A stretch of DNA of 64,000 bases from a virus: positions 1 to 64,000 of IMG/VR virus record IMGVR_UViG_3300037852_000220, one strand, 5' to 3'. Made by a program: the position numbers and the translations under genes. This document shows positions 5,626 to 57,186 of this stretch, piece after piece. How positions within the stretch are numbered: the stretch's first letter is position 1; each line of letters opens with the position of its first letter. Below the pieces are notes generated by a model. The model worked only from the letters and a program-made list of their open reading frames with translations, did no database searches and was not told the DNA's origin.

Positions 5626-5974
5626 AGATGAAAAGGCCAAATTCCATCAGCGCCCGGCGTGTTGTCCGCCAGAAGCTTGGGAAGATTGGTCGATGCCGGC
5701 GTATGTAGATCCTGCCAATTCGTTTGACTGGATTTGCGGCGACTGCAACCCGGCATACAAAGCAAAGATGATGGCGCAAGGCAAGTGTGACTGGCCTTGC
5801 GTCGAGTTTTTTCTGATGCCAATCATTGACAACGGTCGCGTCATCGGTAACGAGATCCAAGGTCGACGCATGTCGATTCCCAACTACCGCGGGTATCCGG
5901 AGGGGCGAAAGATTATTCGCATCGTGGACGCGAAGAAAGGTGTGTACGAACTAGAGCCTGAGAAGCCTAGATGA
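5612..5974 (+). CDS. Cys-rich hypothetical protein
   Basis: ORF track; CCPP..WICGDCNP..KCDWPC cysteine pattern. Confidence 0.45.
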   Translation: MYVDKDEKAKFHQRPACCPPEAWEDWSMPAYVDPANSFDWICGDCNPAYKAKMMAQGKCDWPCVEFFLMPIIDNGRVIGNEIQGRRMSIPNYRGYPEGRKIIRIVDAKKGVYELEPEKPR

Positions 5975-16009: not shown

Positions 16010-16081
16010 ACATGCTGGGGTAGTGTTTGGTTAGGTTGGGCTTGTTCCGGCTTGGCAAGGCGAGGGCGCGTAAGCGCAAAT

Positions 16082-33062: not shown

Positions 33063-33075
33063 GCTGGACTCCCAA

Positions 33076-38673: not shown

Positions 38674-40284
38674 TTACTCGGCAGTTTGTTGAGCCCAATG
38701 CTCTTCGTTCATCCGCTGCACGTCGGCGATCGAGAGAGGTCCGGTACGACCCGCGCCAGCACCCGTCTTTTCGGAGTCCGAGAAGCTGCGCATATCGGCG
38801 TGGTTCGTTTGAGCTTTATGAATCGCGACGGCCGCCCGGAAAGTGCTGGTCACTTCGCGGCAGCTACAGCCGGCGAAATCGAGATTCCGCGTGACTTGCG
38901 ACAGAACTTTCTTGCCGTCTTCGCTCGCCGAGAACAGAATCAAGGCGTTCTTGCGCAGATTGCAGAGGGTGTCATAACCTTGGGCTGTCGGCAGCTTCGA
39001 GTCGAATGTCGGGATGCTGATAGTCGGGGCCAGGATCGCGGCATCGCGCACCGTGTCGGCGAAAGATTCGACCAACATTTCGGAGTCCCGAGCCTTAATC
39101 GCATCGCCCGTGTACTGAGGCGCTTCTTCTTTAAGCTCACCTTCAATCTTGCGATTGGCCTTCTCGTGCGCAGGCTCTTCGCCCGCGGCCGCATCGACTT
39201 GCTTACCGGCGGTCTTCGCGGCTTCAGCCATGTTGTCCATGTGCTTTTTCATTTCTTCGAACCCGTCTTCGCACGTCTTCTTGATGTGCTCGATCGAATC
39301 CTCCATACCTTTCATCTTCTCGTGAAAGGCCGCGTTGGTTTCGGCATCCGCGAAAAACACTTTGCCACCGAAGGTCGCTGCATGTTCGCCGCCGACCGTG
39401 CCGGCGTTGTCTTTGGCTGAGCTCACGCGTTCTTCTCCTGTTTCGGGCAGCCCACCTTCGGGCTTGGTCGTTTCTGGCGCACCCAGATGGACGTGGATGT
39501 GCGTCGTCGATTCATTGTGCTCGGGGTCACCGGTGAGCTTCATGATGCCGTCGCTATCTTCCATGGCCGCCTTCAGGGCAACCTTGTCATCACGCAACAC
39601 GGCATCCTTGACTCGCTTCATCCAATCGGTAACAACACGCATAGCACTGTCCTCAATTCGGTGGGTTGTTTCTGCACCACAGGAACAGAGTATATCGGAA
39701 CAATTCGCGTGCGTGCGCTGGCCCCACAAGTCGGGTCCTTCCGGCTGCATAGCGGAGTCTCGCACGGCGCATCGAGTGCCGCATCGGCCGGGAATGTTGC
39801 GCAAGAACGCAACGTGATTGATTCGAATCTGTCGTTGTGCAGCATGCCCGGGTCCGTAAATCTCATAGCGCGATTCGTAGCCACAGGACAGTTCCTGTGT
39901 CGGATCCGCTTCTACTGCTGTAATCGCATCGGGGTGTTTAAAGATCAAATCCGCGAGCAACAGATCATCCTCGATACCAGTGCCGCGCCGAATGTTTTGC
40001 ATGTGACCGCGAGACAGCATCGACCAATTGTCCGGGACGACATCTACGCCCGGATGATTATCGACAATGTCTTTCCCTTCGGCACTAGCCATAGCCTCGG
40101 GCGCGAACACCTCTTCGGGATCGCGCTCGATCTTTATGATGCCGTCGGGGCCAGGCTCCAGTCCAACCTCATTGACGCTGTACAGCTGAAATCCGGTGCG
40201 CGCGATGGCGCACCCGGAGATCACGAGGAATCCCTCGGGCGTCTTTGAGCGATGCTCGGTGAGTTTGACTGGCGTATAAAACAT
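38674..40284 (-). CDS. prohead protease/scaffold fusion (XkdF/DUF2213-like)
   Basis: N-terminal MFYTPVKL..EGFLVISGCAIARTG..SCGYE pattern; charged coiled C-terminal half. Confidence 0.6.
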   Translation of the reverse strand: MFYTPVKLTEHRSKTPEGFLVISGCAIARTGFQLYSVNEVGLEPGPDGIIKIERDPEEVFAPEAMASAEGKDIVDNHPGVDVVPDNWSMLSRGHMQNIRRGTGIEDDLLLADLIFKHPDAITAVEADPTQELSCGYESRYEIYGPGHAAQRQIRINHVAFLRNIPGRCGTRCAVRDSAMQPEGPDLWGQRTHANCSDILCSCGAETTHRIEDSAMRVVTDWMKRVKDAVLRDDKVALKAAMEDSDGIMKLTGDPEHNESTTHIHVHLGAPETTKPEGGLPETGEERVSSAKDNAGTVGGEHAATFGGKVFFADAETNAAFHEKMKGMEDSIEHIKKTCEDGFEEMKKHMDNMAEAAKTAGKQVDAAAGEEPAHEKANRKIEGELKEEAPQYTGDAIKARDSEMLVESFADTVRDAAILAPTISIPTFDSKLPTAQGYDTLCNLRKNALILFSASEDGKKVLSQVTRNLDFAGCSCREVTSTFRAAVAIHKAQTNHADMRSFSDSEKTGAGAGRTGPLSIADVQRMNEEHWAQQTAE

Positions 40285-43766: not shown

Positions 43767-43991
43767 TCAGACGACACGATTCAGACTCGGATTCAGCGTG
43801 GGGTCGAGCGACGCTTCAGCTTCGCCCGTCATCATGAGCACGTGCTCCAATTCTGATTTTTGCGACTGCTCGACATTTTCTTCGGCCGCCTGCTGATAAA
43901 AATCCTGTACGAGCGAATCCCACGTGCGAGCGCCGTAGGCCGAGGTATACCCCTCGACCTTCGCCATTGCTTCGCGATCAAGCTTTTCCAT
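43767..43991 (-). CDS. hypothetical protein (74 aa)
   Basis: ORF track. Confidence 0.35.
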   Translation of the reverse strand: MEKLDREAMAKVEGYTSAYGARTWDSLVQDFYQQAAEENVEQSQKSELEHVLMMTGEAEASLDPTLNPSLNRVV

Positions 43992-46140
43992 ATGGCTTCC
44001 TAAGGTGACCGGTTCCGAGCCAGGTTTTGAACTCGTTCATCGACACGCGATGTACGGACATGATGCGGTCGACGCCCTGCAGATCACTGTAGCTGGACAC
44101 GTAGGCCGCACACGCGCGTGCCTGCGATGAGAACCCGAGCATGCACTTGTGCTCATCAAAAAATCCGGTGCGCAGATCCTTCTGGTTGATGATGTACACG
44201 GTGTCCGCGCCGCGATCGGGCCCGAGGAAGCAATCCATTCCTTCGTCCGGACCTTCGGCCGAACCCGTACCGATCACGTAGCCGTAGTCGGCCGCTATGA
44301 TAGCTTGCCACGGGTTCGCAGGATCACGCGAGGTGCGCGTCGTGCCGCGCTGATTCTCGATGTGCAACTTCAACCCGTGGAACTCGCACGTCACTGGGCC
44401 GCACGCCGCGTCATCGAACGGCCGCGCACCTGGCATTACACCACTCGGCATGACGTCGGGTTTGGGTAGAACGTTCGGAGGGTAGCCGGGCTCGCTGTAC
44501 GGAATAGCGTGACGCTCTTCAGTGCCACCAGCAGAACCTGTCCATGCAGCGTCGCGGCTCTTCCCCTTTGCAGGAGCCGGTTTCTTACCGCCCGGGGGCG
44601 GACCACCTGGCACTGGGGGCTGATCCTCCATGCCCGGCATGACGATCCCCGCGGCAGGAACCGGAACATCGGCGGCCGCTTCGATATCTTCTTCCGTGAT
44701 GTTTGTCCACACGCCGGTTTCGTGCGACTGCTGTTTGAGCTCCTGCATCGCAGTCTTCGTGGACACGGTGCCTTTTTCTTCGGCAGCCAGAATGGTCTCG
44801 GTGATGGTCTTGGCGATCGTGGCCTTTTCGAGCTCGGTCGGTTGCCACAGGGGCTTGAACGCGATGCTCATCTCCTCGTTCCACTTGATCCCGAGGGATT
44901 GCGCCATCAGCTGATACACGACCGTCATCGGATACAGCAGATCAGCGATTTGGCGTGCCTTGATCATGTCGTAGTAGTTGCGCATGTCGGACTCACCCGT
45001 GGCGTTCATGCCGGCGGGTGATGTGCCGAACAGCTTTGTCTGCGGCATCTGCAGGGCGCCCGACAATTGCTGCCGGAACTCTTGCAGAATCTCGGCCAGC
45101 CCCGCGAACGCGGCGTGCTCATGACCTTCGTATTCGTCTTCCAGGTCCATCAAGGTGACGCCCTCGATGCCCTGCTGCGAGCGCATAACTTCGAGCAGTG
45201 CGCGCACACCTTCCATCGCGACTTCGTTCGAGCCGACGAGCTCTTTCAGGCCCTTCAGCTTGTATGTGCGGATGAACGATTTGTCGATCAGCTGCGCGGC
45301 GCCGCTCGATCCGATGTCGAACGCATTGATCCGGTCCTGGATCGTTTCGAGCACGGACAGGCCCCAGAGATTCTCCTGGATCGCCTGCCAGTACGGAAGC
45401 TCGTTTCCGACCATGCGGATCACGCGCGAGTGATGAATTTTCATGCGCGGCAGGGCCGGCGCGTCCGCGGTGACGCGGTAAAACATCGGCTTGCCGAATT
45501 GCGGGGACGCAAAGTCCGTTACCAGCAATTCCAGGCTCGGGTCGACCATCCACCGGTCGAGCGGGAAGATGCCCTTGAATTGATCCTTGCCGACGGTCTC
45601 GATTCGCAGCGGAGTCGAAGGATCCTGGTTGGCGATTATGATGAACCCGAGGCACCCGCCGTACAGGCGCGACCACTTCAGCACCGACCGGACGCTCGTC
45701 CACAGATTAAGCTTCGTGGCCTCGGCATCCATCTTACGGATGTCCTTTGGCTTCATAGGCCCATTAAGAATGACCCCTTGACGAGTCATGTCTTCCGGGA
45801 TCACGTCGATGGCGTTCTTGCAGACGAACTGCCCGCGGTACATCCACTCGACCAGCGTGCGGATCCGGGTCAGCGGGTTGAAACTTGAACTGGAGCTTGA
45901 AAGGATGTTCTGCGCGCCGAGCCCGAGCCGGTGCGTGTAGTTGACGAACGAGTCCTGGAATTTGCCGCCGGCCGTCGCTTTCGCCATCGGGGTAACGGCG
46001 TCCATGCCGATACTCTCACGAGCCTTGCTGTCGGCGACTCTCGCGGAGCGTGCTACCTGAGTGACACCCACTCGTTTTGGCGCGCCGGCACCGTTACGCT
46101 TCCCGCCCCATCCGTTCGCCATCTTGAAACCTCGATTCAA
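43978..46140 (-). CDS. portal protein (DUF1073-like) with ~170-aa C-terminal extension
   Basis: 720 aa upstream of MuF-like gene; core followed by Pro/Gly linker then Cys/His-containing extra domain. Confidence 0.65.
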   Translation of the reverse strand: MNRGFKMANGWGGKRNGAGAPKRVGVTQVARSARVADSKARESIGMDAVTPMAKATAGGKFQDSFVNYTHRLGLGAQNILSSSSSSFNPLTRIRTLVEWMYRGQFVCKNAIDVIPEDMTRQGVILNGPMKPKDIRKMDAEATKLNLWTSVRSVLKWSRLYGGCLGFIIIANQDPSTPLRIETVGKDQFKGIFPLDRWMVDPSLELLVTDFASPQFGKPMFYRVTADAPALPRMKIHHSRVIRMVGNELPYWQAIQENLWGLSVLETIQDRINAFDIGSSGAAQLIDKSFIRTYKLKGLKELVGSNEVAMEGVRALLEVMRSQQGIEGVTLMDLEDEYEGHEHAAFAGLAEILQEFRQQLSGALQMPQTKLFGTSPAGMNATGESDMRNYYDMIKARQIADLLYPMTVVYQLMAQSLGIKWNEEMSIAFKPLWQPTELEKATIAKTITETILAAEEKGTVSTKTAMQELKQQSHETGVWTNITEEDIEAAADVPVPAAGIVMPGMEDQPPVPGGPPPGGKKPAPAKGKSRDAAWTGSAGGTEERHAIPYSEPGYPPNVLPKPDVMPSGVMPGARPFDDAACGPVTCEFHGLKLHIENQRGTTRTSRDPANPWQAIIAADYGYVIGTGSAEGPDEGMDCFLGPDRGADTVYIINQKDLRTGFFDEHKCMLGFSSQARACAAYVSSYSDLQGVDRIMSVHRVSMNEFKTWLGTGHLRKPYGKA

Positions 46141-46165
46141 ATTGAATCAAGATGGTATCACCGAA

Positions 46166-46402
46166 TCAAGGCATGCAGTGCTGGTCTAGATCTTCGAGGA
46201 AGGGTTTCATCAGCCGGGCGAATTTTTCACCATCAAATTCGCCGGAGGAGGTGCATTGTGTGAATGCTCCGAGAAGAATCTGGGCGCCACAGCTGAAGCC
46301 TGTTTTGTACCCTGCGCACGCCGCCTGCCGAGTGGCCAGGCTGGCATTTTCACATGCCGTCATGGAGAATTCGGCCAACGACCCCGTGAGCGTGCGAATC
46401 AT
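46166..46402 (-). CDS. hypothetical Cys-containing protein (78 aa)
   Basis: ORF track. Confidence 0.35.
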   Translation of the reverse strand: MIRTLTGSLAEFSMTACENASLATRQAACAGYKTGFSCGAQILLGAFTQCTSSGEFDGEKFARLMKPFLEDLDQHCMP

Positions 46403-46665
46403 TTCCGTCCCCTATTTCGGACCTTCTTATCGAAGGCTTCAAGAGTTGGCGCCGGTTGCCGATGAATACTGTCGGTATCGAGCTTGGCAGCCGGCCGGGT
46501 CAGGGTAATGGTCAGACGATCGCCGACGCGCGCCATGTCCACAATTATTGTGCTGGCTTCGCCAAGGCCGCCCTGCATCCGGTACGTGCGATTGTCCTCG
46601 GCGTCAAGCTGGACCGCCGAATCGAGAGACAGGGCCTCGATGCGGACCAGGCTCATGACGGTCAC
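46399..46665 (-). CDS. hypothetical protein (88 aa)
   Basis: ORF track. Confidence 0.35.
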   Translation of the reverse strand: MTVMSLVRIEALSLDSAVQLDAEDNRTYRMQGGLGEASTIIVDMARVGDRLTITLTRPAAKLDTDSIHRQPAPTLEAFDKKVRNRGRK

Positions 46666-46859
46666 GCAAACTGGCTGGTATTCACGGTCTGCGGATTGAA
46701 CACCGCGGAAGCGCCGCCAAGGGCCAGCAACACGTTCGCGACCGCATCGGCCGCATTGTCCGTGTTCAACGTGACGACGACCTGGGTTATGGTCTGAGCG
46801 CCACTAAGCGCGTTCGTGACATTGACCGGGATGGTCATGGTGTGGGAAGCGACGGGCAT
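46662..46859 (-). CDS. hypothetical protein (65 aa)
   Basis: ORF track. Confidence 0.35.
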   Translation of the reverse strand: MPVASHTMTIPVNVTNALSGAQTITQVVVTLNTDNAADAVANVLLALGGASAVFNPQTVNTSQFA

Positions 46860-46954
46860 GTGATTCTCCTAAAATTGGTGGGCGGGGGCCGCGAGTCAAG
46901 CCCCCTCGGATACCTGAGCCCGGGTTTCCTCGTAGGCTATGCCTGCAGTCTATT

Positions 46955-47551
46955 CTACGCGATCCTGTGCGTCGGTTGGGGCAGACGCGAGCTTGCGCCC
47001 AAAACCGGTCGTTGATCGAACGCCTCCCCTGCATTGGGCGCCACGATGACCGTGGTTCCTGGATCGGCCAAAACTGGTGGTGCGATCTCGACCGTACCAC
47101 CGCCAGCCCGCACGACATCCCCTGTCCGCGGATCGACAGTATGCGGAACACCGGTCTCGCGCGTCAAGCGACCAGCTTCAACGTCGCCGGCAGGATTCAG
47201 CCAGGTGCCAATCTCGACCATTTCACCTTCACCATTCTGCGCGAAGCGGCCGGTACCCTTGAAATGTTTCCCCGTAGTTGCCGGGGTTTGCGTCACTTGC
47301 AAATCCTTCGATTGTAGGATCGGATCTCCGGCTAGCGCTGATGCCTTCTTAGTGGGGCGCGGCGCGCCGCCACCTGATTCTTTCTTCGAGCGTGGGGCCG
47401 TAACGAAATCAAGCGCGGCCTGCAGCTGTTCACGCCATACATGGTCATGAGGCGACCCGGGCTCATTTTCGTAGACAAATGACTGCAGCGGATCCATCTG
47501 CCCTGTGCGAGCCAGTGCGTCGTTGCATTCATCCCAGGTCGGCAGTATCAC
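46955..47551 (-). CDS. hypothetical protein (198 aa)
   Basis: ORF track. Confidence 0.4.
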   Translation of the reverse strand: MILPTWDECNDALARTGQMDPLQSFVYENEPGSPHDHVWREQLQAALDFVTAPRSKKESGGGAPRPTKKASALAGDPILQSKDLQVTQTPATTGKHFKGTGRFAQNGEGEMVEIGTWLNPAGDVEAGRLTRETGVPHTVDPRTGDVVRAGGGTVEIAPPVLADPGTTVIVAPNAGEAFDQRPVLGASSRLPQPTHRIA

Positions 47552-48351
47552 TTCGTTCCTCCACGTCGAGCGGCATTCGCGGCCACGATGGTCGGAAGTG
47601 CCAAGTCCAGCATGTTTCGACGCTGCGCAGCCTTACGATCCTCGACTGCCTTGTGATCGCCAAACAGCAGTTGTTTGATTCGCTTCTGGTTGTCGCGCGC
47701 GCCGGGAATGTTACTGTCGGGCCGGGCCATGCGTTCCCAGATCGAACGCTTCGCCGGGTTGTCGACGGGCTCTGGACCTGGATCTGGCAGGTATGGTGCT
47801 CGTAGATACGCGATCAGCTCGGGCCTGAAATTGTCGATCGCCATGCGGAGTTCGATCGGAATCTGCGACCGCTGCATGTTCACATAATCGGCGTCCGGAA
47901 ATGTCGCGGTATCAATCAGTGCACTGATCTCTGGCGGTGCGTCAACCCACGGAAGGGGGTTGTCCTTTGGATTTCCGTTCGCCACATCCTTCGGATCAGG
48001 GACCATGCGAGTCACCCACGGTGTGATGACTTTGATCATGCCCATAGCATTCGGATGATCAAGCGTGATCGTGATCCCCATCGCGGCCGCAGTACTAATG
48101 ATCGTCTCGGCGATCGAAGGCTTGGCGGGCTCAGGGGGCGGCAGATCGTCGATTGTGAGCTCTTGGCCGCCCCCGTCGCGTTCCTCGATGAATTCGATTA
48201 GATCGGCGCGACACTTGCGAATCTCTTGCAGCAAATCGGCCGGGACCTTGCGCTTTGGCGTGGCCGTCAGTTTACCGTCAGTCGGGTTGATGCGCAGTTT
48301 GACTCCGCGCTTTTCACAGGCTTCTACGATCTCAGCTGGCTTCACGTTCAA
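47548..48351 (-). CDS. hypothetical protein (267 aa)
   Basis: ORF track. Confidence 0.45.
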   Translation of the reverse strand: MNVKPAEIVEACEKRGVKLRINPTDGKLTATPKRKVPADLLQEIRKCRADLIEFIEERDGGGQELTIDDLPPPEPAKPSIAETIISTAAAMGITITLDHPNAMGMIKVITPWVTRMVPDPKDVANGNPKDNPLPWVDAPPEISALIDTATFPDADYVNMQRSQIPIELRMAIDNFRPELIAYLRAPYLPDPGPEPVDNPAKRSIWERMARPDSNIPGARDNQKRIKQLLFGDHKAVEDRKAAQRRNMLDLALPTIVAANAARRGGTK

Positions 48352-48671
48352 TCACCGTCCAAATCGCCATCGGTATCGATCACCGGCAGCGGAGGGTATT
48401 GGACACCGCGCACGGCGCCGATGATAGATTCACGAGCATTGCTGATCAAAGCCTGGAGTTCGGCCGGCAGCGGCGTCGGAGTGTTGTCGGGTTGGAACGG
48501 CATCGTGACCGTCATCGTGGTGAAGTTGTTCGACAAAATGACATCGCCTCCGAGCGCCCGAATCCAGTCGAGCGCATACTGGCCTTTTGTCACTCGCAAA
48601 CCTGGCGTACCTCCATTGAACATTCCGTCAGGGGCCCCATTGGGCTCGAACACGTTAGGCGGGTACGGCAT
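48348..48671 (-). CDS. hypothetical protein
   Basis: internal ATG 48671 with GGAG 6 nt upstream avoids overlap with lipoprotein gene. Confidence 0.4.
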   Translation of the reverse strand: MPYPPNVFEPNGAPDGMFNGGTPGLRVTKGQYALDWIRALGGDVILSNNFTTMTVTMPFQPDNTPTPLPAELQALISNARESIIGAVRGVQYPPLPVIDTDGDLDGD

Positions 48672-48672
48672 A

Positions 48673-49068
48673 TCAGGCTCCGTGCAAATCAGGCAGTTGA
48701 AACATGAACCGGAATTGCTCAGCATTGTCAGGATCACACTTACCAAGGACCGCTTCTCGCACCATTCGCGGAGTCACTTCGTCATCCATGTCCCATAACG
48801 AATGAACGGTTTCGCGCACGCGAGACACGTCTTCTTTGTCTCGGACGTATGTAAACCAACGACCGTCTTCGAACATCTTCCGCAGACCTTCGTCCGCTTC
48901 GTCGACCGACCAACCCTGTATTTTCAGAGTCATGAATCGTTCGGCGTCGGATGCATACGATATACATTCACCCGGCTGCAGGGTATGTGCGTGCGAGCCG
49001 CAGGACACTAAAACAAACATGCTACCGAGAATCGATGCTGTCCAGAAGGCTCGCGTCAATACGACCAT
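48673..49068 (-). CDS. lipoprotein (signal + lipobox LVSC)
   Basis: MVVLTRAFWTASILGSMFVLVSCGS. Confidence 0.45.
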   Translation of the reverse strand: MVVLTRAFWTASILGSMFVLVSCGSHAHTLQPGECISYASDAERFMTLKIQGWSVDEADEGLRKMFEDGRWFTYVRDKEDVSRVRETVHSLWDMDDEVTPRMVREAVLGKCDPDNAEQFRFMFQLPDLHGA

Positions 49069-49069
49069 G

Positions 49070-49453
49070 TCAATCCTTATTCGGCACACCGTGCGATTGG
49101 CGCAACGACTCCATCAACCGCTCTTTGCAGTTGCTCTCCACTATATCATGGACCTGTTTCGCCGACAGCGTAAGATTACCGTAAATCCAATTCAGGGTAT
49201 TGATTGCCTGCTGATCGTCGTCGTCGTCTTTGTAGATGCACGTCAGCCGATGAGCGGGATCGCGACAGATCTCCAGAGTCGCCGCCATCACACCGAGTTG
49301 CATCTTGAGGGACGCGTTCTTGACGTCGAACGCTTCCTGCTTCGCGTCCCACGCGAACGCGTGGCATTCGGTTTCGTTCATCGTGTGGGCAACGGCGGCC
49401 CCGGCAACAGCATAGATCGCGAGCATGATCGAAAACGACAGGCTTCTCATCAC
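49070..49453 (-). CDS. secreted protein (signal peptide)
   Basis: MMRSLSFSIMLAIYAVAGAAVAHT signal; acidic DDDDD stretch. Confidence 0.45.
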   Translation of the reverse strand: MMRSLSFSIMLAIYAVAGAAVAHTMNETECHAFAWDAKQEAFDVKNASLKMQLGVMAATLEICRDPAHRLTCIYKDDDDDQQAINTLNWIYGNLTLSAKQVHDIVESNCKERLMESLRQSHGVPNKD

Positions 49454-50127
49454 AGGGTCCTTTCAAATGCGGCCACAGCCGCGGGAACGTATGGGCGAAT
49501 CAGGTCGAGCATGGCTTCGGCGTAGACCCGTATTTCAAACTGCGCATGCTCGTGCAAACGAAGCCTAAGGAAACCGAACAAGTTGTGCAGATCGACGGTC
49601 GCGAAGTGCTTGCTGTACGTGTTCAGTGGCAGCACGCCGCGCGCGAGCTCGCGGGGGCAACCGAGCGACAGGAGTTTTCTGTAGCTCCGGAACGATTCCA
49701 GACACGCGCATCGGATCTCGTCCTGTATCTCAGCCGCATTCTCATTTACCTCGTCAGTCCGCATCTGCTTGTTGTGCGTCGATTGCGTCGTGATCTGGTC
49801 AAGCGCCGGCACGTAGAAGCACTCTTCGAGCTCGCTATAGCGACCCGACTGCTCGTTGTACTTCCAGGTGCGGTGCCGATGCCACTGACGGAAGTTGAAG
49901 ATCGGAGCCTTCGCCTCGAAACAGAAGATCACATGCTCGAATGGCGACGTGTGCTTGTTCTCCATCAGGTAAGCGATCAGCTTCTCGTCCGATCCGTCGT
50001 TGCGCGGCGCGGCGTTGTACGACACCCGGGCCGCGCGCACGATCATCTGGTCGTCACCCATGTGGTCGACCAGGCGCACTATGCCGTGATCTAGCACGGC
50101 GCGCCAATTGAGGATAGGCTCACTCAT
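49450..50127 (-). CDS. thyX: flavin-dependent thymidylate synthase
   Basis: ThyX signature RHR..S: FRQWHRHRTWKYNEQSGRYS, plus RVSYN..FEH motifs. Confidence 0.8.
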   Translation of the reverse strand: MSEPILNWRAVLDHGIVRLVDHMGDDQMIVRAARVSYNAAPRNDGSDEKLIAYLMENKHTSPFEHVIFCFEAKAPIFNFRQWHRHRTWKYNEQSGRYSELEECFYVPALDQITTQSTHNKQMRTDEVNENAAEIQDEIRCACLESFRSYRKLLSLGCPRELARGVLPLNTYSKHFATVDLHNLFGFLRLRLHEHAQFEIRVYAEAMLDLIRPYVPAAVAAFERTL

Positions 50128-50564
50128 TTTGTCAAATACGCCAGGGTCGACTCGATCGCGGCAACGTGCGCCGCGGGGACGAAGATCATCTTACCGTCGG
50201 CCGGCGCCGGGCTCTGGCCAGGTTCGAAACCTGCGGCGTCACGCACCGCGGTCCAAAGACCTGCCGCATCCACGGGGCGGTCAGCATGCCACACTGCCGC
50301 ATAGTAGAGTGCAGTCACGGCGTCGAGCAATGCCCCGCCGTCGTTATCGTTGGCATATTCGGTCAGCAGTACGGCGGCACGCGCCATGTACGACAGATTC
50401 TCCGAGTACAGGCCCTCGCGGTAGAAGCGATCGATCGACATGCGGATCTTCTCGACCAGCTGTTCGACGGGCATTGCCACGATCTCGGGGAATTCTTTTG
50501 GTGGTTTGGCGTCAATGGTCGCGACCAACTTGCTCTTCGGTGTCATGCTACCTCCATAGTGCAT
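50124..50564 (-). CDS. hypothetical protein (146 aa)
   Basis: ORF track. Confidence 0.4.
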   Translation of the reverse strand: MHYGGSMTPKSKLVATIDAKPPKEFPEIVAMPVEQLVEKIRMSIDRFYREGLYSENLSYMARAAVLLTEYANDNDGGALLDAVTALYYAAVWHADRPVDAAGLWTAVRDAAGFEPGQSPAPADGKMIFVPAAHVAAIESTLAYLTK

Positions 50565-50863
50565 TGCAGGGGATGTCTGTGATTGCTTGCCGTGCCACGA
50601 ACTTGGTAGACTCGAGTCTCGGCAATTTGATGAGAATATACACCGGCCACGGCACGCCCTTCAGTATGAACCTTGAGCATGATATCGACCGCTTCGAAAG
50701 CAGTTTTGCCGAAGATCTGGATCAACAACTCAACCACGAACTCGGCCGGTGTGATGTCATCATTGATCAGAATCACAGCCCACAGTGGGGGCGGGGCTGG
50801 GGGTTGGATTTGACTGATCATACCCGGAACGATTTCGCCGGGCACTGCGTAGGTGGCGCTCAT
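50543..50863 (-). CDS. clpS: ATP-dependent Clp protease adaptor ClpS homologue
   Basis: WAVILINDDITPAEFVVELL...AVDIMLKVHTEGRAVAGVY..VAETRV..HPLQCTME aligns by eye with bacterial ClpS core. Confidence 0.75.
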   Translation of the reverse strand: MSATYAVPGEIVPGMISQIQPPAPPPLWAVILINDDITPAEFVVELLIQIFGKTAFEAVDIMLKVHTEGRAVAGVYSHQIAETRVYQVRGTASNHRHPLQCTMEVA

Positions 50864-50864
50864 T

Positions 50865-51068
50865 TCATTCCCCACTGAGACGCGTATAGGCGCCCGCACG
50901 TTCGAGCTCTTCGATCTCTTCCTCGACTTCTTCGAGCGTCTCGCGATGACCGAGCCCGGTACGTAACGCCACGCTGACGCGAACCAGAATACCCCGCAGT
51001 CGGTTGCGATCCTCGGGAGTCATCGCGTCGTGTCCCGAGTGATCAACAGATCCGGGAAGTGACCCCAT
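50865..51068 (-). CDS. hypothetical acidic protein (67 aa; alt start 51023)
   Basis: ORF track. Confidence 0.35.
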   Translation of the reverse strand: MGSLPGSVDHSGHDAMTPEDRNRLRGILVRVSVALRTGLGHRETLEEVEEEIEELERAGAYTRLSGE

Positions 51069-51229
51069 GGATGCACACTCATACCGAACGCGTAGTTACG
51101 GCATTGCTCCATGTCAATGAAATCTTTCGAATGACTAACTTCCAGTCGTCCGTCGTACCAAACCTCCCGGCGACTGCTGGTGCAGTTGTCGAACGTGCCA
51201 GTTGGATGTTTCGGTTTCGTAGCCATCAC
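51020..51229 (-). CDS. hypothetical protein (69 aa, GTG start)
   Basis: ORF track. Confidence 0.35.
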   Translation of the reverse strand: MMATKPKHPTGTFDNCTSSRREVWYDGRLEVSHSKDFIDMEQCRNYAFGMSVHPWGHFPDLLITRDTTR

Positions 51230-51326
51230 TCAGTATCCTTCCAGTTGAATTCTCGTGGAGTAACTGGAACAAACATCCAAGAAAGAAGGATGCCGAACAT
51301 GACTATCAATGTTATAAAAACCTGGC
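51217..51326 (-). CDS. micro membrane protein (36 aa)
   Basis: GGAGG RBS, single TM, stop overlaps next start; below ORF cutoff. Confidence 0.2.
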
Positions 51327-51335
51327 CAGGACTCA

Positions 51336-51533
51336 TCAATCCTCCACGAATTGCCGGATCTCGGTATCGAATTGGGTGTCGCGCTCGCGGGCGCCCAGGA
51401 TGTGCTTGGCCTCTTCGAGAGACTTGAACTTGTCGCGCGTGCGCCGGCCGGCGCGGTCGGGCGGGTTGAGCATGTTGCGGATGTTCCGCTCGACCGCTTC
51501 TTCGTACCGCTGCTGTCGGGTCTTAGCCATCAC
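51336..51533 (-). CDS. hypothetical protein (65 aa)
   Basis: ORF track. Confidence 0.35.
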   Translation of the reverse strand: MMAKTRQQRYEEAVERNIRNMLNPPDRAGRRTRDKFKSLEEAKHILGARERDTQFDTEIRQFVED

Positions 51534-51862
51534 TTCCCCTTGGCGAGCCGACGGACACGGGCGCGTTCTTTCTTCGCCACCTTCAGCAGATCGCTCCAGA
51601 CGTCCTGCTCGATGCGTATGCGCAACCGCTCGATGAAATTCATCGCATTGACGGCCTGCTCCATGACCATCACCGGGCGGGCGGGTTTGTTGCCGATGTC
51701 GAACCGGGCGAGCAGAACGTCGCGCAGGGCGTCGATCTCGCGGACATTCAGGCGGATGTTTCTGATTGCGGTCGCGGTGAGTTTGTTGCGGTCCGGCATG
51801 TATTGATACAGATTAGAATCGACCGACTTCACAGGCGTTGCCTCCATCGAGTGAACAGTCAT
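51530..51862 (-). CDS. hypothetical protein (110 aa)
   Basis: internal ATG chosen over TTG 51889. Confidence 0.4.
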   Translation of the reverse strand: MTVHSMEATPVKSVDSNLYQYMPDRNKLTATAIRNIRLNVREIDALRDVLLARFDIGNKPARPVMVMEQAVNAMNFIERLRIRIEQDVWSDLLKVAKKERARVRRLAKGK

Positions 51863-51888
51863 TATGGCAGTAAATGACGGTCGTGTCA

Positions 51889-52017
51889 ATAAATATCGTC
51901 GTCATTCTGATCAGCAATCTGCCGGATCAGATCCAGGATCCAACAGCCGGCCGCCACGAGTGCTGCAGCGCACATTCCTGCAGTAACTGCTTGACAAACC
52001 GTCAGATCGTCGATCAT
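51889..52017 (-). CDS. micro membrane protein (42 aa)
   Basis: GAGGA RBS 7 nt upstream; hydrophobic core; below ORF cutoff. Confidence 0.25.
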
Positions 52018-52166
52018 CAGAATTTCCTCAAAACGAACATCAGATGATCGTACGCTTCGCGCGGAGTGGATCCTCTACGCGCAACCCATCCTAGCCGGCA
52101 ATACCATACACCGCACTCGCGCCAAAGACGAGGCTTATGAGCCATTCGAATCACTCCGCGAAAAAA

Positions 52167-52763
52167 TTAAAACTCGGAACGAAGCGACAGGCTGAAAACG
52201 CCCCATCCCAATCCTTGGTACTGCGTCTGTACCGAACCAACGTGGACATTCTCCGTGCGCAAGAGACGATAGTTGAAAATCAATTCCGCCACGGGAGTGC
52301 GATATCCGATCCCCGCCAGCGGTGACACAAGGGTTTGAGTGTTGTCCACTCGTAGACCCTGATGCGGCTTGACCGTCCCATCGGTCCAATCGGGGATATT
52401 CATCGCGAATCCCGAACGCGCGACACCCACCCCGATCTGCGCGAACGCCGGGCCCCAGTGAGGCTCGTACGCCGCCCAAATCCCATACGGATGCTCTACC
52501 CCGTACCAGTGGCTGTACGGAACACGCCCGTCACGACAGGCCGGCTCGTCTGCGCCACATGCGATCGCAGACGATGTCATCCTCCCCAGGCGCTCTGCCG
52601 ACACGCTCCAGTTTGAGCCGACCAGCGTGACACCATATGCCACACCTTCGTTGCGAAACGAATGAGGCTTCTCGGCTTGGTACCACGTACCATTCGGAGG
52701 ATTCGTTTCGTAGGAGCCGCCGAGCAGCAGCTGCAGACATGCGGTAAACAGGCAATTCGTCAT
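52167..52763 (-). CDS. outer-membrane beta-barrel protein (PagL/Lom-like moron)
   Basis: N-terminal signal, alternating amphipathic strands, C-terminal ...LSLRSEF ending in Phe. Confidence 0.5.
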   Translation of the reverse strand: MTNCLFTACLQLLLGGSYETNPPNGTWYQAEKPHSFRNEGVAYGVTLVGSNWSVSAERLGRMTSSAIACGADEPACRDGRVPYSHWYGVEHPYGIWAAYEPHWGPAFAQIGVGVARSGFAMNIPDWTDGTVKPHQGLRVDNTQTLVSPLAGIGYRTPVAELIFNYRLLRTENVHVGSVQTQYQGLGWGVFSLSLRSEF

Positions 52764-52948
52764 TGCGTGGACTCCCTAATTGCTTGACGGGCCAGGTCGA
52801 GAATCTCGCCCGGAGTTATAGTTGGGCCGCCGAACGGACAGCGCGCGTGGCGTGCCTTGATCCATTCGAGATGCTTCCGGTCGAGTGCAGCGAGAAGCAC
52901 AACGGCTTGCGCAGGACTGAGTGTCGGAACCCCAACGGTGTTGAACAT
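52760..52948 (-). CDS. hypothetical protein (62 aa)
   Basis: ORF track. Confidence 0.35.
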   Translation of the reverse strand: MFNTVGVPTLSPAQAVVLLAALDRKHLEWIKARHARCPFGGPTITPGEILDLARQAIRESTQ

Positions 52949-52963
52949 GTCGTTACCCCCGAT

Positions 52964-53113
52964 TCATACGTGAACCCACAGAATGACTGCGCAGAGTACT
53001 GCAACAAGCGCGTAGTCGAACGCCGCACCGTGATGCGCGTATTTGCCGTACGAGAATTCCATGAGGGCGCGCAGAGTGTAGATTGCGCATATGAAGTAAA
53101 TCAGCCAGTGCAT
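52964..53113 (-). CDS. small two-TM membrane protein (49 aa)
   Basis: GGAG 6 nt before ATG; MHWLIYFICAIYTL...LVAVLCAVILWV; preferred over listed 52953-53159 frame. Confidence 0.3.
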   Translation of the reverse strand: MHWLIYFICAIYTLRALMEFSYGKYAHHGAAFDYALVAVLCAVILWVHV

Positions 53114-53358
53114 CTTCATCTCCGGTTGCGGATCCAATGCAAGTGATGATGCTGTTCAAGTGATTCGGCGCGGCGCGACCGCCTGCATTGGCCTATGAAC
53201 GGTGTGCCCGGCAAAGCCAGGTATCCCACCAAAAGTTCGGCACGTCGGACGGGTCACAGGCAATTAGCGCCTCGCCGCTTCGACTCGCAACCGGCGGCGC
53301 CGCCGGCCCTATCACTTGAACAGCATCATCGAGAGCGAGACTGTAGCACATGATCCGA

Positions 53359-53385
53359 TCTGATGCAAGAAAAAAATAGGCCCCG
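53359..53385 (-). terminator. rho-independent terminator (8-bp stem ATAGGCCC/GGGCCTAT, loop CGAA, then 7 U on - strand)
   Basis: seen in sequence downstream of secreted-protein gene. Confidence 0.6.
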
Positions 53386-53402
53386 AAGGGCCTATTATTA
53401 GG

Positions 53403-54266
53403 CTATCGCCTAACTGCGTCATCTCCACCACCGCCCCCGCCGCCACTCGGCGGAGAGACGTAATGCTGCTGCAGACCATTCCCCCAAATCGGAATGTAGG
53501 AGAAGAACGTAGCATTGTCGAGGATGCCGCAATTGAATCCACCGCATCCCGAACCCGTGAACGTCACCAGATACGTTCCCGGCTGCAACACGTTCCCCGT
53601 GCTTTGGTTCAGGACCCATTCGTCGCACCGCACCCAGGTGTTGCAGGCGTAGGTGGCGTGATTGAATTGCGCCACCGTCCCATCGCCCAAAAGAGCCGGC
53701 TGACCCGTCGAGACCCATTGCTGCAACATGCAAGGGGATCCGCCGCAGAAGCCCTGCCCCATCACCGGAACCGTGTTTCCGTTGGCATCAGTCGTAGTCT
53801 CCGGCACCGCCTGAACGATCGAGACTAGAGGCGCGCCATTCACGTCTGTTGCCGGCATGTATGTCAGATACGTCGGCGGAGGACATCCGCGCCCTGAACA
53901 CACGCCTCGCCCTTCCTGACCGTACAACGTCCACGGCATGTTGGTGATGACCCATCCGCCGCCAGCTGCCGTAGCTGCCGCGTCTGACGTGTAATAGCCG
54001 GAGAAACTGGCCTGGATAGCACCGGAGAAATCTTCAGTCACCAGAGGGTTGCTAGTGCCGCCAATGCGGAAAGTGGTCTGCGTGTATGTGCCGTTGACCA
54101 GTGCCCCTTGAGAGATAGTCTCACGTCCGCTGTTACCCGCGGTGCTGATCTGCGGCGGAAACGGATTGGGGGTAGGACCCGCGCATGGCGCGGCATGCGT
54201 ACACGTCTGCGCGAGCGCAAACGTCGAAAACAGCAATGCGAAACATCCTGCAATGAATTGCTTCAT
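53403..54266 (-). CDS. secreted Cys-rich protein (moron)
   Basis: MKQFIAGCFALLFSTFALAQT signal; many Cys and Gly; flanked by terminators. Confidence 0.5.
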   Translation of the reverse strand: MKQFIAGCFALLFSTFALAQTCTHAAPCAGPTPNPFPPQISTAGNSGRETISQGALVNGTYTQTTFRIGGTSNPLVTEDFSGAIQASFSGYYTSDAAATAAGGGWVITNMPWTLYGQEGRGVCSGRGCPPPTYLTYMPATDVNGAPLVSIVQAVPETTTDANGNTVPVMGQGFCGGSPCMLQQWVSTGQPALLGDGTVAQFNHATYACNTWVRCDEWVLNQSTGNVLQPGTYLVTFTGSGCGGFNCGILDNATFFSYIPIWGNGLQQHYVSPPSGGGGGGGDDAVRR

Positions 54267-54371
54267 TTTCCCGCTTCCTTTATTCAACATCCCGAGAACC
54301 GCTCGGTACGGTGGTTCGATAGCCTGATCTTACCCGAAATCAAAGTCAACTCATCCGATCGGTTGAGGGTG

Positions 54372-54397
54372 AAAAAAATCCCCGCATATGCGGGGAT
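54372..54397 (-). terminator. rho-independent terminator (perfect 20-bp palindrome ATCCCCGCATATGCGGGGAT then 7 U on - strand)
   Basis: seen in sequence upstream of moron gene. Confidence 0.6.
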
Positions 54398-54536
54398 TGT
54401 CAGTTGGTTGTTACCACGACTGTAACTGAGATCGGTATCGTGGCGTAAATGCGACGGTGTCTCCGTCTTTCTCGCCATCTCCGCCACTTGGGTGAGTACC
54501 GCCAGTTAAGCTCGCGGACTAGCCCAAGGACCGAGC

Positions 54537-54848
54537 TCACGACAACGTGACTGTCACGGACAGCGGAATTGTCGCCGTCACGTTCGGCACCGTAAACGGC
54601 AGCGAGACCACCGCGGGGGCGGCCGGGCGGGCCGTTTGCGCGTCAATCCGTTCCGCCGAGATCGTGTAGGTGCCAGGGGCAACGTTGTTGAACGTGACCG
54701 ACACTTGCGTGCCCGTGCCCGTGGTGTCTTGCCCACTTTGCGTGGACACGATCGCGCCGGTGCTGTCCAGCAGATTGAAGTTGACCGGCCCTACCAGACC
54801 CACGTTAACCGGGCTGCCGAGGCTGGCGACTGCGTTTGCATTCATCAT
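54537..54848 (-). CDS. Ig-like/beta-sandwich domain protein
   Basis: ATG 54848 with AAGGA 6 nt upstream; PGTYTISAE..VTATIPLSVTVTLS. Confidence 0.4.
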   Translation of the reverse strand: MMNANAVASLGSPVNVGLVGPVNFNLLDSTGAIVSTQSGQDTTGTGTQVSVTFNNVAPGTYTISAERIDAQTARPAAPAVVSLPFTVPNVTATIPLSVTVTLS

Positions 54849-54920
54849 GGTGATTCCTTTCGAAGAAGTGAATCGAGAGTATGCCACGCTGCACTGCAGC
54901 GTGGGGACCCTCTGATTCGA

Positions 54921-55085
54921 TTACAGCTTTTTCACTGCAGATTGAGCAGCTGCCACATCGGCCTTGATCTTTTGAGCGATCATCGGATGTTTCGCCTGCA
55001 CGAACACGCCAACCACGACAGCGGCTGCGTGAGTGCCGATCAACAAAGCGTTCGTGGCCAGAAACGCATACACGGAACTGAACAT
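54921..55085 (-). CDS. small membrane protein (54 aa)
   Basis: GGGGAG 6 nt upstream of ATG 55085; single TM. Confidence 0.4.
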   Translation of the reverse strand: MFSSVYAFLATNALLIGTHAAAVVVGVFVQAKHPMIAQKIKADVAAAQSAVKKL

Positions 55086-55267
55086 GGGATTCTCCCCAAA
55101 GAGTGAGTCTGCGATGGTACTCCGAATTCGCATGTTGCGCGGATGCCACTTTCGCGTGTCAACTGTCTGGAAGTGTCGACCCTGTATCCCGCCAGCAAGT
55201 GGTATATGGTTACCAGTAGGTCTTTGGCTGATTGGCGGAACAGGACACCATAGTTCTAGACAGTCGA

Positions 55268-56914
55268 CTACACCTCATCCTCGTCAGCTAGATACCCCAC
55301 GCGAGTGGGTGTCTCTCCGTCGGCGCGCTCGCGCACCAGGCCGTCGGTGAACTTGAATTGCGCCAGGCGTTGCACATTTGCAACAGCCTTCAGCTTCTCC
55401 AGCGTCTCTTCATCCGGAATGGCCAGCACCGCATAGGCGTCAGCGCACGCGTCGACCCCGTCGTCGTGGCGGCAGTCTGGGAACGGCCGGAAGTGATCCT
55501 TGACAGCGTCGGCGCAGTGTGCCATGACCGCGACCCACCCCACGTTCAGCTGCGAGGCGAGTGGGTCTGCGCGTGTCTGTTTATCCGATCGCGCAGGGCG
55601 CTCCACAACCGTGTAACCGTCAAGCAGCTGTGTGATGGTCATGAATTGGTCGGTGCCTGCCTGGCCCGGCTCCACCGGCACCGCTATCTTCACGTCACGT
55701 CCGTCGCGATGTGCTGTTGCCTTCATCCGCGCCTTTACCTCATCCGGGCGCGCGCGAAACAGCATGAATTCCTCGATGACGTAGATGTGCACCTGGGGGT
55801 AGTACGCCAGCAGCACGCTCGCTGTGAAGTCGGGCTCGGTCCTACCCGCCTTGAGCTCACGCGCGGCCAGGTCCCATCCGCGGCAGGCTAGGCGAGGACC
55901 CGGCGGCCGCACCGTGATCACCGGCATAGCGTCGACCTTGAATGTCGTACCCGACACGTTGTACGGCTGCTGCATATACTGCGTGGCGAACTCCCACGGT
56001 TTCTGCAGGCGATACGCGTGCAGCCACTCTGTAGTGGCGCCGCCTTCCCATCGCGAGTTGTCGTTCTCGTCGAGCGCGGTCAGAGTCAGGTTATGGAACT
56101 TGACGCCCAGGATGCTGGTCATGTCCTGACGCCCATGTTCATCTGGTAGATGAAGCTTCGAGAAAATGTCGTCCGTGGCGGCCCGCTGCCCAATGACCAG
56201 GAACGGCGTACGCGTCGTCTCGTTGCGTCGCGAGTTGACGACACCACCAACGATGTTGAGCACCTCCTCCTTGCTGAGCTCGCTCTTGGCTTCCTGCAGT
56301 TTGTGCAAGTCGTCCATGACCAGCGCGCCCGAGAAGCGATCGAGCACGCCTTTGATGCCGACGCCGAAGCCCGTGATCTGGCCGTTGATTCCGACGAACT
56401 TCATGTTGCCGCCCTGCGTCGTCTTCGTCACTTCCTTGCTGTCGTTCTTCCGGTCGATGACGGTCTTGGGGAACAGCCGCTTGTACAGAGCCGATCCCAT
56501 GATCTTCTGACGGATCAGGTCCGACGAGTCGTTGGCCAGCTTCTCCGTAGAGCAGATGTACATGATGTTTGAGTCCGGGTACTGGCCCATCCCGAACGCG
56601 ATCCACATGCACACGATGTATGTCTTGCCGAACCGCGGCGGGATGTTGATATCGGCGCCCAGGTACTTCCCCTCGAAGCACTGCTGTAAGAATTGCATGA
56701 GCGTCGTGTGGAACTCCTGCTCGTCAAACGGCCGCCCGTCGGAGAGCTCCATGTGCATCAGGTGCACGAAACTGCGGAAGTCCTGCCGGGCCATTGCCTC
56801 GCGCACGGCCTGGTGCTGCTCGGGCGTGAGTTCCTCCTCTGGCTCGGGCCCGTCGGGCGGCAGCACGCCGTATGGCGTCACCTCCCAAAGGATGGGGTCA
56901 TCTTGCAGTCGCAT
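55268..56914 (-). CDS. terminase large subunit
   Basis: Walker A PPRFGKTY; nuclease-domain Asp-rich C-terminus; start chosen at 56914. Confidence 0.75.
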   Translation of the reverse strand: MRLQDDPILWEVTPYGVLPPDGPEPEEELTPEQHQAVREAMARQDFRSFVHLMHMELSDGRPFDEQEFHTTLMQFLQQCFEGKYLGADINIPPRFGKTYIVCMWIAFGMGQYPDSNIMYICSTEKLANDSSDLIRQKIMGSALYKRLFPKTVIDRKNDSKEVTKTTQGGNMKFVGINGQITGFGVGIKGVLDRFSGALVMDDLHKLQEAKSELSKEEVLNIVGGVVNSRRNETTRTPFLVIGQRAATDDIFSKLHLPDEHGRQDMTSILGVKFHNLTLTALDENDNSRWEGGATTEWLHAYRLQKPWEFATQYMQQPYNVSGTTFKVDAMPVITVRPPGPRLACRGWDLAARELKAGRTEPDFTASVLLAYYPQVHIYVIEEFMLFRARPDEVKARMKATAHRDGRDVKIAVPVEPGQAGTDQFMTITQLLDGYTVVERPARSDKQTRADPLASQLNVGWVAVMAHCADAVKDHFRPFPDCRHDDGVDACADAYAVLAIPDEETLEKLKAVANVQRLAQFKFTDGLVRERADGETPTRVGYLADEDEV

Positions 56915-57186
56915 CAGAAGACCCAGACCAGCACCGTGAGTGCGAATCCGATGCAGTATCCGCCGAAGTCGACGCACCCTGATTGAATTGACGCACCTTC
57001 TTCATGCAAGTCGAACCAGAACTCCTTCCACGCTGTGAACGCCACCGCGGCCGCGAGCCCGTACCAGCGCAGGCCGGGCAGCCAATGCGACCACAGCGCC
57101 AGCACCGTGAAGATCATGAACGCGTGCAGCTCCAACGACGTCGTGACGGGCGACAACATGTATTTCTTGAACCAATTCACGAACAT
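56914..57186 (-). CDS. three-TM membrane protein between terS and terL
   Basis: hydrophobic segments; stop/start coupling with terL. Confidence 0.45.
   Translation of the reverse strand: MFVNWFKKYMLSPVTTSLELHAFMIFTVLALWSHWLPGLRWYGLAAAVAFTAWKEFWFDLHEEGASIQSGCVDFGGYCIGFALTVLVWVF

Follow-up and report, generated by a model that had tools for sequence, protein, structure and literature searches.

A phage-encoded member of the ClpS family with a natural Met-to-Ala/Gly gatekeeper replacement, proposed to act on host ClpAP

Bacterial ClpS sets the N-degron rule, i.e., which N-terminal residues condemn proteins to ClpAP, and a ClpS made by a phage could rewrite this rule during infection. The question is raised by an open reading frame (ORF) at positions 50543-50863 of a 64,000-nucleotide (nt) stretch of viral DNA (positions 1 to 64,000 of the IMG/VR record IMGVR_UViG_3300037852_000220, hereafter the window), which an earlier note had read as a phage-encoded ClpS homologue that could redirect or block host ClpAP. 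Here, we ask whether the encoded protein belongs to the ClpS family, whether it is part of the phage genome, and what it might do to the host protease. The profile match, the fold, the residues that bind the N-terminus, the pocket and the N-terminal tail all identify it as a ClpS family member, and we consider it nearly certain that it is a functional one. Its most distinctive feature is a natural replacement of the Met gatekeeper of the N-degron pocket by Ala or Gly, which is conserved across the phage clade.

The ORF is present as predicted and lies on the minus strand. The ClpS coding sequence (50543-50863, minus) starts with ATG at 50863 and consists of 106 codons followed by a TGA stop at 50543-50545; its product of 106 amino acids (aa), as read from the window, is MSATYAVPGEIVPGMISQIQPPAPPPLWAVILINDDITPAEFVVELLIQIFGKTAFEAVDIMLKVHTEGRAVAGVYSHQIAETRVYQVRGTASNHRHPLQCTMEVA. 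The ATG stands one base past the stop of the preceding ORF and behind a GGGGAA run, with a Shine-Dalgarno-like GGGGA (50869-50873, minus) 5 nt upstream and the TGA stop of the preceding ORF in between. Based on this run, the spacing to the upstream stop and the gene calls in relatives (105-106 aa), we assigned the start to ATG 50863 and rejected the GTG at 50899 (118 aa), which overlaps the upstream ORF, has no ribosome-binding site and is unused in the gene calls of the relatives.

The ClpS identity proposed before holds far beyond chance. The Pfam ClpS profile PF02617 matched the protein with E=7.8e-30 and 102.9 bits (gathering cut-off, 23 bits) over profile positions 2-80 of 80, and ClpS chains in the PDB were matched with E=1e-23 to 1e-18. 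PHROG 27368, which is labelled 'ATP-dependent protease' but actually contains viral ClpS, matched with E=3.3e-22 over 18-100 of its 102 profile positions. The four ClpS motifs quoted in the earlier note are all found, as VILINDDITPAEFV, MLKVHTEGRAVAGVY, AETRV and HPLQCTME. Eight NCBIfam ClpS models also matched, every one of them with a score under its equivalog cut-off: the best fell short with 104.4 of the required 112 bits (NF000672), and further ClpS equivalogs (NF000669 and NF000670 among the set) gave 103 against 149 bits and 89 against 143 bits. The window protein thus belongs to the ClpS family but is no equivalog of the cellular gene. The gene does not stand in a clpS-clpA operon either, being followed by a 140-aa gene and then by thyX. 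The scores below the cut-offs, the missing operon and the missing canonical gatekeeper agree in that this protein is not the housekeeping equivalog.

An AlphaFold model (AF2, alignment A3) reached predicted local distance difference test (pLDDT) values of 85-95 in the core, with residues 1-15 below 50. Its secondary structure elements follow each other in the order E-H-H-E-H-E, with none ahead of residue 28, and the ClpS alpha/beta fold, three strands against three helices, is present. Comparison with the ClpS crystal structures of E. coli and Caulobacter using Foldseek gave a root-mean-square deviation of 0.5-1.0 Å and target template modelling scores (TM-scores) of 0.92-0.98. Based on the pLDDT, the TM-score and the substitution rates given below, the folded core comprises residues 26-106 (beta-alpha-alpha-beta-alpha-beta; 50546-50788, minus). 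It is preceded by an N-terminal extension (NTE) of residues 1-25 (50789-50863, minus), a flexible tail that ends in the Pro-rich junction QPPAPPP. This NTE equals that of E. coli ClpS in length, and in the relatives it measures 24-28 aa despite rapid sequence change. About 14 or more NTE residues before the core are reportedly needed for the ClpA pore; the 25 residues found here are long enough to reach it, the engagement of the pore itself being predicted.

The alignment of the window protein with E. coli ClpS is gap-free over residues 23-105, so that the E. coli numbering applies. The N-degron pocket loop, N34-D-D-I-T-P-A-E-F-V43 (50735-50764, minus), holds N34, D35, D36 and T38 together with an unusual I37. 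All five residues that bind the alpha-amino group and the backbone (N34, D35, D36, T38 and H66) are the same as in E. coli ClpS. In column counts over 108 homologues the N, D, D and T of the loop are invariant, and so is His66, the ligand of the alpha-amino group (codon at 50666-50668, minus; placed by alignment to ClpS homologues), which is present in 108 of 108 homologues and in all 59 viral ClpS proteins discussed below. Using the pocket residues listed for Caulobacter ClpS (I45, L46, V56, M75, V78 and L112 among them; PMC12493166), ten of eleven pocket positions are kept (L32, I33, N34, D35, T38, V43, M62, V65, H66 and L99), and the hydrophobic specificity pocket formed by L32, I33, V43, M62, V65 and L99 is complete. 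A decayed fragment had been named as the alternative to a working gene; the five binding residues and the purifying selection on the core show that it is not one.

The sole pocket position that is not conserved is the gatekeeper, where Met40 is replaced by Ala (codon GCC, 50744-50746, minus; Met40 in E. coli, Met53 in Caulobacter). Met40 admits Phe, Trp, Tyr and Leu and excludes beta-branched side chains (PMC12493166; bioRxiv 10.1101/2024.06.12.598358). The top-scoring PDB sequence for the window protein is the engineered Caulobacter M53A mutant (3g1b/3g3p), which scored above the wild type (3dnj). The M53A/M40A replacement reportedly widens the specificity of ClpS to Ile and Val N-termini. 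Because the ClpS1 proteins of Arabidopsis and Leptospira also lack this Met, we take the gatekeeper as a marker of canonical specificity and not of family membership.

Small gatekeepers are rare outside the group of the window phage. The 108 nearest database homologues have Met in 106 cases, Thr in one and Ala in one, the last being the 90% relative. The best 150 representatives, taken from a library of 1.84 billion proteins, have Met (140), Gln (2), Lys (2), Arg (1) or Ala (2), and both of the latter belong to the subfamily of the window phage; the top-scoring representative in this search (P0109, 166 aa) carries two tandem ClpS core domains. Of 257 other homologues, 246 have Met, and Ala occurs only within the same subfamily. 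This subfamily consists of six distinct proteins; at 66-92% identity, the gatekeeper is Ala in five of them and Gly in one (contig L001). A DNA-pattern scan of IMG/VR for NDDxTP[A/G]EF, in which the gatekeeper was fixed as Ala or Gly, returned only two true ClpS: the window family accounts for one, and the other lies on an 89-kb contig. Three or four further small-gate lineages came from a metagenome scan for NDD[IV]TP[AG][ED]FV, in which position 37 was fixed as I/V; none of them stands beside a clpA-like gene. No description of a natural Met-to-Ala/Gly gatekeeper in ClpS was found in the literature.

The gene is encoded by the phage, as the earlier note had assumed. It is flanked by the large terminase and portal genes, and the arrangement terminase, small genes, ClpS, 140-aa gene, thyX, TubC_N-like protein and portal is kept in about 13 related contigs (L001/L094/L117, L003 and L098-L108, from IMG/VR, JGI, Logan and NCBI), with lengths of up to about 76 kb. 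ClpS identity to the window across these contigs is 66-100%, and the reading frame is intact in all of them; in a further contig with 66% ClpS identity (P0111), ClpS is again followed by a homologue of the 140-aa protein (P0265). Substitution rates were estimated by the Nei-Gojobori method. In close pairs, core residues 23-106 gave nonsynonymous rates (dN) of 0.005-0.026 and synonymous rates (dS) of 0.15-0.47, and dN was 0.19 at a dS of 1.0-1.6 against a 69% relative, i.e., a core dN/dS of about 0.03-0.19 among the related contigs. The N-terminal 22 residues gave a dN of 0.13-0.40 and a dS of 0.36-0.62 in close pairs. Purifying selection on the ClpS core is therefore strong, and the tail can vary in sequence, its length being fixed.

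Exchange of alleles is also seen at this locus. Over most of 48.5-53 kb the window and L001 share about 100% DNA identity, with a drop to 86% within the 5' half of the ClpS gene, and the two ClpS proteins differ by eight changes in the tail and by the gatekeeper (Ala versus Gly), with no other differences. Other relatives keep ClpS yet differ by about 20% in the 140-aa gene. The segment with ClpS and the 140-aa gene therefore swaps alleles within a backbone that hardly differs elsewhere. Over 48500-53000, comparison with L001, L102 and L106 showed about 100% DNA identity for the most part and 73-90% in short patches, namely the ClpS 5' half, the 140-aa gene, part of thyX and 51150-51450.

On the side of ClpA, residues 79-84 (Q-I-A-E-T-R; 50612-50629, minus) form, by alignment, the start of the helix that contacts the ClpA N-domain. 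We take E79 and E82 to be the acidic residues involved, with K84 as a further ClpA contact. The window protein keeps E82, has Arg in place of K84 and has Gln in place of E79. Among the 108 homologues, position 79 is occupied by D (92) or E (15), with a single Q, and the 59 viral ClpS proteins have E (55) or Q (4) there. Two acidic residues stabilise the ClpS-ClpA interaction (bioRxiv 10.1101/2024.06.12.598358).

Considering which protease this adaptor might serve, searches of the 64-kb window with tblastn and approximate E. coli queries found no ClpA, ClpP or Aat (L/F-transferase) at E<=1; this null is meaningful despite the approximate queries, since these families are conserved enough. Because the window encodes no ClpA or ClpP, host ClpAP would most likely be used. 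The nearest cellular ClpS proteins are betaproteobacterial (Sulfuricella, Thiobacillus, Hydrogenophilales and Eoetvoesiella, at up to about 63% core identity), and the window DNA polymerase is closest to those of Burkholderia phage AH2 and of Acidovorax and Achromobacter phages (46-48% identity). These two lines together suggest a betaproteobacterial host with ClpAP, since we take Betaproteobacteria to have ClpA. When genome contigs were scanned with the window ClpS, the sole match was to an Oligoflexia metagenome-assembled genome (48% identity), and no host or prophage lead emerged.

A putative promoter lies at the head of the ClpS-containing block. This sigma-70-type candidate (TTGACA, a 17-nt spacer with TG, CATAAT; 51861-51889, minus) has 11 of 12 hexamer matches to the consensus and an extended -10 TG, and the 29-nt element is identical in seven related contigs. 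Downstream of it stand a GGAGG and the GTG start of a 100-aa gene (ATG in the relatives).

Based on these features, we propose that the phage protein is an N-recognin that works on host ClpAP, probably with a specificity widened through its open gate, and taking all steps together we find this account somewhat more likely than not. Host RNA polymerase would transcribe the ClpS block during infection, and the product would dock on the N-domain of host ClpA via the E82/R84 helix, with its NTE fed into the ClpA pore. It would then hand proteins with destabilising N-terminal residues to ClpAP and, like cellular ClpS, would divert ClpAP from its other substrates. With the gatekeeper Met replaced by Ala, or by Gly in the sister phage, the range of accepted N-termini is predicted to reach past Leu, Phe, Tyr and Trp to at least Ile and Val, so that the phage adaptor would target a different and wider set of proteins than host ClpS. 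The pay-offs might be the removal of host or defence proteins, the recycling of amino acids or the reprogramming of ClpAP. The general idea that such a protein redirects or blocks host ClpAP, put forward in the earlier note, is a reasonable proposal and agrees with Iyer et al. 2021 (PMC7824862), whose suggestion for the ClpS of jumbo phages is that it recruits targets to the ClpAP of the host.

A bolder form of this account holds that the open-gate ClpS, with Ala/Gly at the gate and Ile/Val at position 37, has evolved in phages into an N-recognin that follows a novel N-degron code and would serve as a device for counter-defence or host takeover. It would send to host ClpAP proteins that host ClpS passes over, e.g., those with Ile, Val or other N-termini laid bare when defence effectors are activated by proteolysis or when the phage induces cleavage. 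That small-gate, stand-alone ClpS occurs in several unrelated lineages without a clpA-like neighbour bears on this reading, which we regard as unlikely. The rapid swapping of NTE and gatekeeper alleles might be the outcome of an arms race in which host ClpA, or else the targets, would be the opponent.

Several points weigh against the proposed delivery with widened specificity. We infer ClpA binding, delivery and specificity of the phage protein alike, and the effect of M53A/M40A on specificity is taken from secondary citations and PDB entry titles. Ile37 stands where cellular ClpS has Tyr or Phe (Y in 99, F in eight and I in one of the 108 homologues). Gln79, at a position where 107 of the 108 homologues have D or E, could weaken docking on ClpA. 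ClpA in the host is an assumption. The promoter candidate is no more than a match to the consensus, and promoter-like sites in the region are in total no more numerous than in shuffled sequence.

The same evidence has to be read against other explanations. An excess of ClpS might fill the ClpA N-domains and pore and so stop the degradation of ssrA-tagged and other substrates, phage proteins included, with delivery being secondary or irrelevant. Cellular ClpS inhibits the degradation of ssrA-tagged substrates by ClpAP through its NTE (Dougan 2002, as cited in PMC6102473), the NTE length of the phage proteins is held while their sequence drifts, and the strong match of the promoter candidate to the consensus makes expression plausible. 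A pure blocker would not require an N-degron pocket. The residues of this pocket are nonetheless invariant, with a core dN/dS of about 0.03 in close relatives, and the only one to have changed determines the specificity, which points to selection acting on the bound substrates; a blocker is to our reading rather unlikely. The Gln at position 79 can also be taken to mean that the protein binds N-termini and docks poorly, thus shielding phage proteins in competition with host ClpS. The open gate would allow it to cap more kinds of N-termini, and the head-maturation protease of the phage creates new ones, so that products of the prohead protease would be the candidates for protection. E82 and a basic residue 84 are nevertheless kept, Gln can still hydrogen-bond and occurs in four of the 59 other viral ClpS proteins, which look otherwise canonical, and the simplest reason for an NTE of constant length would be that it engages the ClpA pore; we find such a sponge improbable.

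The remaining alternatives concern the origin of the gene. A recently captured host gene without a role in the phage, or a decaying passenger, would fit the closest cellular ClpS being betaproteobacterial, i.e., from the probable host group, and the segment with ClpS and the 140-aa gene being a recombination hot spot. This reading is largely refuted by the selection analysis: the frame is intact in about 13 contigs, the gene order is kept down to 66-69% ClpS identity and the core is constrained throughout. With the closest cellular sequence at about 63%, the capture is an old one, and we consider a passenger very improbable. Bacterial DNA that carries clpS might also have been brought in by a chimeric assembly or a host flank. 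Some 'phage' ClpS records are probably host DNA, examples being UNVERIFIED_ORG Ralstonia phage YO084_1, a fragment, and the four of the best 80 IMG/VR loci that have a clpA-like gene downstream. For the window this explanation has practically no probability left and is refuted by synteny, with ClpS placed between large terminase and portal, without an adjacent clpA and in the same way in independent contigs.

The window itself represents a tailed, myovirus-like phage. On the minus strand it encodes the large terminase (55268-56977), portal (43978-46140), prohead protease (38674-40284), major capsid protein (36938-38026), a DUF3383 sheath (31545-33119) and baseplate J (24744-25940), and on the plus strand a DNA polymerase (16052-17959), a primase (8866-11346) and a helicase (5971-7644). 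Megablast of 45000-56000 of the window against 50,697 phage records gave no match, so that the phage has no close cultured relative among them; its terminase shares at most 33% identity with those of Bordetella, Proteus and Acinetobacter phages. The portal of the window has an extra C-terminal domain at residues of about 587-719, which matches families from large polyvalent or DarB-like virion proteins; in L102 and L106 the orthologue is annotated with PF18823 InPase for this domain.

ClpS belongs to a block of small minus-strand genes in which it is followed by the 140-aa gene, thyX and more small genes; from ClpS on, the genes mostly overlap by 4 nt (ATGA), with listed overlaps of up to 74 nt. 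The flavin-dependent thymidylate synthase thyX (49450-50127, minus; PF02511, E=3.9e-52; phrog_85, E=5.9e-66) lies two genes from ClpS, as had been noted. The gene in between (p140; 50124-50546, minus) starts with an ATG that overlaps the ClpS stop (ATGA), with a GGAGG within the last ClpS codons, and this overlap suggests translational coupling. Its product has no Pfam, PHROG or PADLOC match, and full-length homologues directly follow ClpS in all related contigs. Its AlphaFold model is poor (pLDDT 58, predicted TM-score 0.31, all-helical). At residues of about 73-113 it carries a highly conserved 45-aa motif, L..AV..LYYAAVWHADRPVDE..LWTAVRDAAGF.PG.SP (alignment A2), which looks like an uncharacterised mobile mini-domain. 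Over 20 small metagenomic proteins (95-215 aa) that show no relation to each other outside the motif contain it at 70-85% identity. PADLOC gave no match to ten proteins of the accessory block, which therefore shows no sign of a known defence system.

Further genes of this region were observed. Just after thyX, adjacent genes for 127- and 138-aa proteins (49070-49453 and 48673-49089, minus) encode hydrophobic signal-like N-termini followed by a common AHT..EC motif; the two are weakly similar (E=0.002 over 33 residues), have no family match and may be duplicated secreted or periplasmic proteins. A 267-aa protein (47548-48351, minus) with a weak N-terminal match to the TubC_N docking domain (E=2.3e-6, 28 bits against 26) is conserved in all relatives of the block. 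A 295-aa protein (53403-54290, minus) has a signal-like N-terminus (MKQFIAGCFALLFSTFALAQ), a Gly-rich C-terminus and no Pfam match. As its gene is bracketed by two strong hairpin-plus-T-run elements that resemble intrinsic terminators (54377-54398 and 53375-53396), it looks like a self-contained moron.

The manipulation of host AAA+ proteases by phages through adaptors is almost unexplored experimentally. The window protein is convenient for such work, being close enough to the ClpS of E. coli and Caulobacter for the existing assays and structures to apply, and it carries a natural version of the one laboratory mutation reported to widen specificity. Protein sequencing might also profit from natural open-gate ClpS variants, as binders of N-terminal amino acids. 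Should the protein act as an ordinary ClpS, the gene is a routine auxiliary one; a specialist would expect viral ClpS to exist, and the functional twist depends on a single residue and on inference.

Phage ClpS as a class is already annotated and discussed, in jumbo phages, in PHROG, in the 2021 review and in IMG/VR. Searches of phage genomes with tblastn found annotated ClpS in the jumbo phages Atu_ph07, Phosso, the PA5oct group and a Vibrio phage, and in the description of Atu_ph07 it is one of seven Clp-like genes (PMC6102473). The literature search found no experimental work on any phage ClpS. A profile-guided scan showed that at least 593 IMG/VR viral contigs carry ClpS with the loop NDDxT[PT][MA]EF, and spot checks of the neighbours at such loci found phage-only PHROGs and phage GroEL. 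As phage ClpS genes are both annotated and common, the window ClpS is less novel in this respect; the earlier note had missed the existing annotation, as well as the strand and the change of the gatekeeper from Met to Ala.

Of the best 80 IMG/VR ClpS loci, 76 lack a downstream clpA-like gene and four have one, and the gatekeeper is Met in all 80. Among the 59 distinct clpA-less viral ClpS proteins, H66, E79 (55 of 59), E82 and K84 are conserved; positions 34-42 except 37 were fixed by the search pattern, and conservation there is uninformative. In the same proteins (L011-L090), position 37 is S in 17, F in nine, Y in seven, Q in six, T in five, K in five, H in four and V in four, and position 62 is Thr in half of them. 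A variable position 37, which is Tyr or Phe in cellular ClpS, may be a general signature of viral ClpS. Viral ClpS genes are often found beside chaperone genes, e.g., with a phage GroEL about 700 bp upstream in IMGVR_UViG_3300042197_002955 (L029:1707-3320; further loci L005, L006 and L007), and small heat-shock proteins, and thymidine kinase or ClpX, occur near ClpS in Atu_ph07, Phosso and PA5oct. The neighbour from nucleotide metabolism is thyX in the window.

Compared with these systems, the window ClpS shares with the IMG/VR proteins its stand-alone gene, the usual lack of a clpA-like neighbour and a position 37 that is mostly not Tyr. It differs from them in the gatekeeper and in having H97 and C101, where most of the others have F/H97 and I/V101. 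The ClpS proteins of jumbo phages (Atu_ph07 gp708, PA5oct, Phosso and Vibrio phage 2.275.O; PHROG 27368 and 15940) are likewise stand-alone and about 100 aa long. Their genomes measure 285-490 kb, and some of them code for a ClpX, ClpA or ClpP as well as for small heat-shock proteins, whereas the window phage is mid-sized. Jumbo-phage ClpS is also much more divergent, with 33-44% identity to the window protein, and several copies lack pocket residues: that of Atu_ph07 reads HDDQKTPL and has no His66, and that of the Vibrio phage also has no His66, whereas the window protein is near canonical.

The proteobacterial ClpS proteins (E. coli ClpS/YljA, 1mbu, 2w9r and 3o2b; Caulobacter crescentus, 3dnj) share 44-52% identity with the window protein. 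E. coli ClpS has the same length of 106 aa, the same disordered NTE of 25 residues with a Pro-rich junction, E82 and a basic residue 84. The window copy differs from the proteobacterial ones in being phage-encoded, in having no clpA after it and in the changes Met40Ala, Tyr37Ile and Glu79Gln. The Caulobacter M53A mutant (3g1b, 3g3p) has the same loop type, NDDxTPAEFV, and overlays on the model at 0.5-0.6 Å; it is an engineered point mutant, whereas the small residue of the phage is natural, conserved in the clade and accompanied by I/V at position 37. Natural gatekeeper variants are known in Arabidopsis ClpS1 (Arg) and Leptospira ClpS1 (Tyr), earlier examples in which a natural exchange of this Met goes together with a changed selectivity for N-degrons (PMC7966870; PMC12493166). 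Those replacements are large or charged and reshape or narrow the pocket entrance, whereas Ala and Gly are the smallest possible, so that in the phage ClpS the entrance should open.

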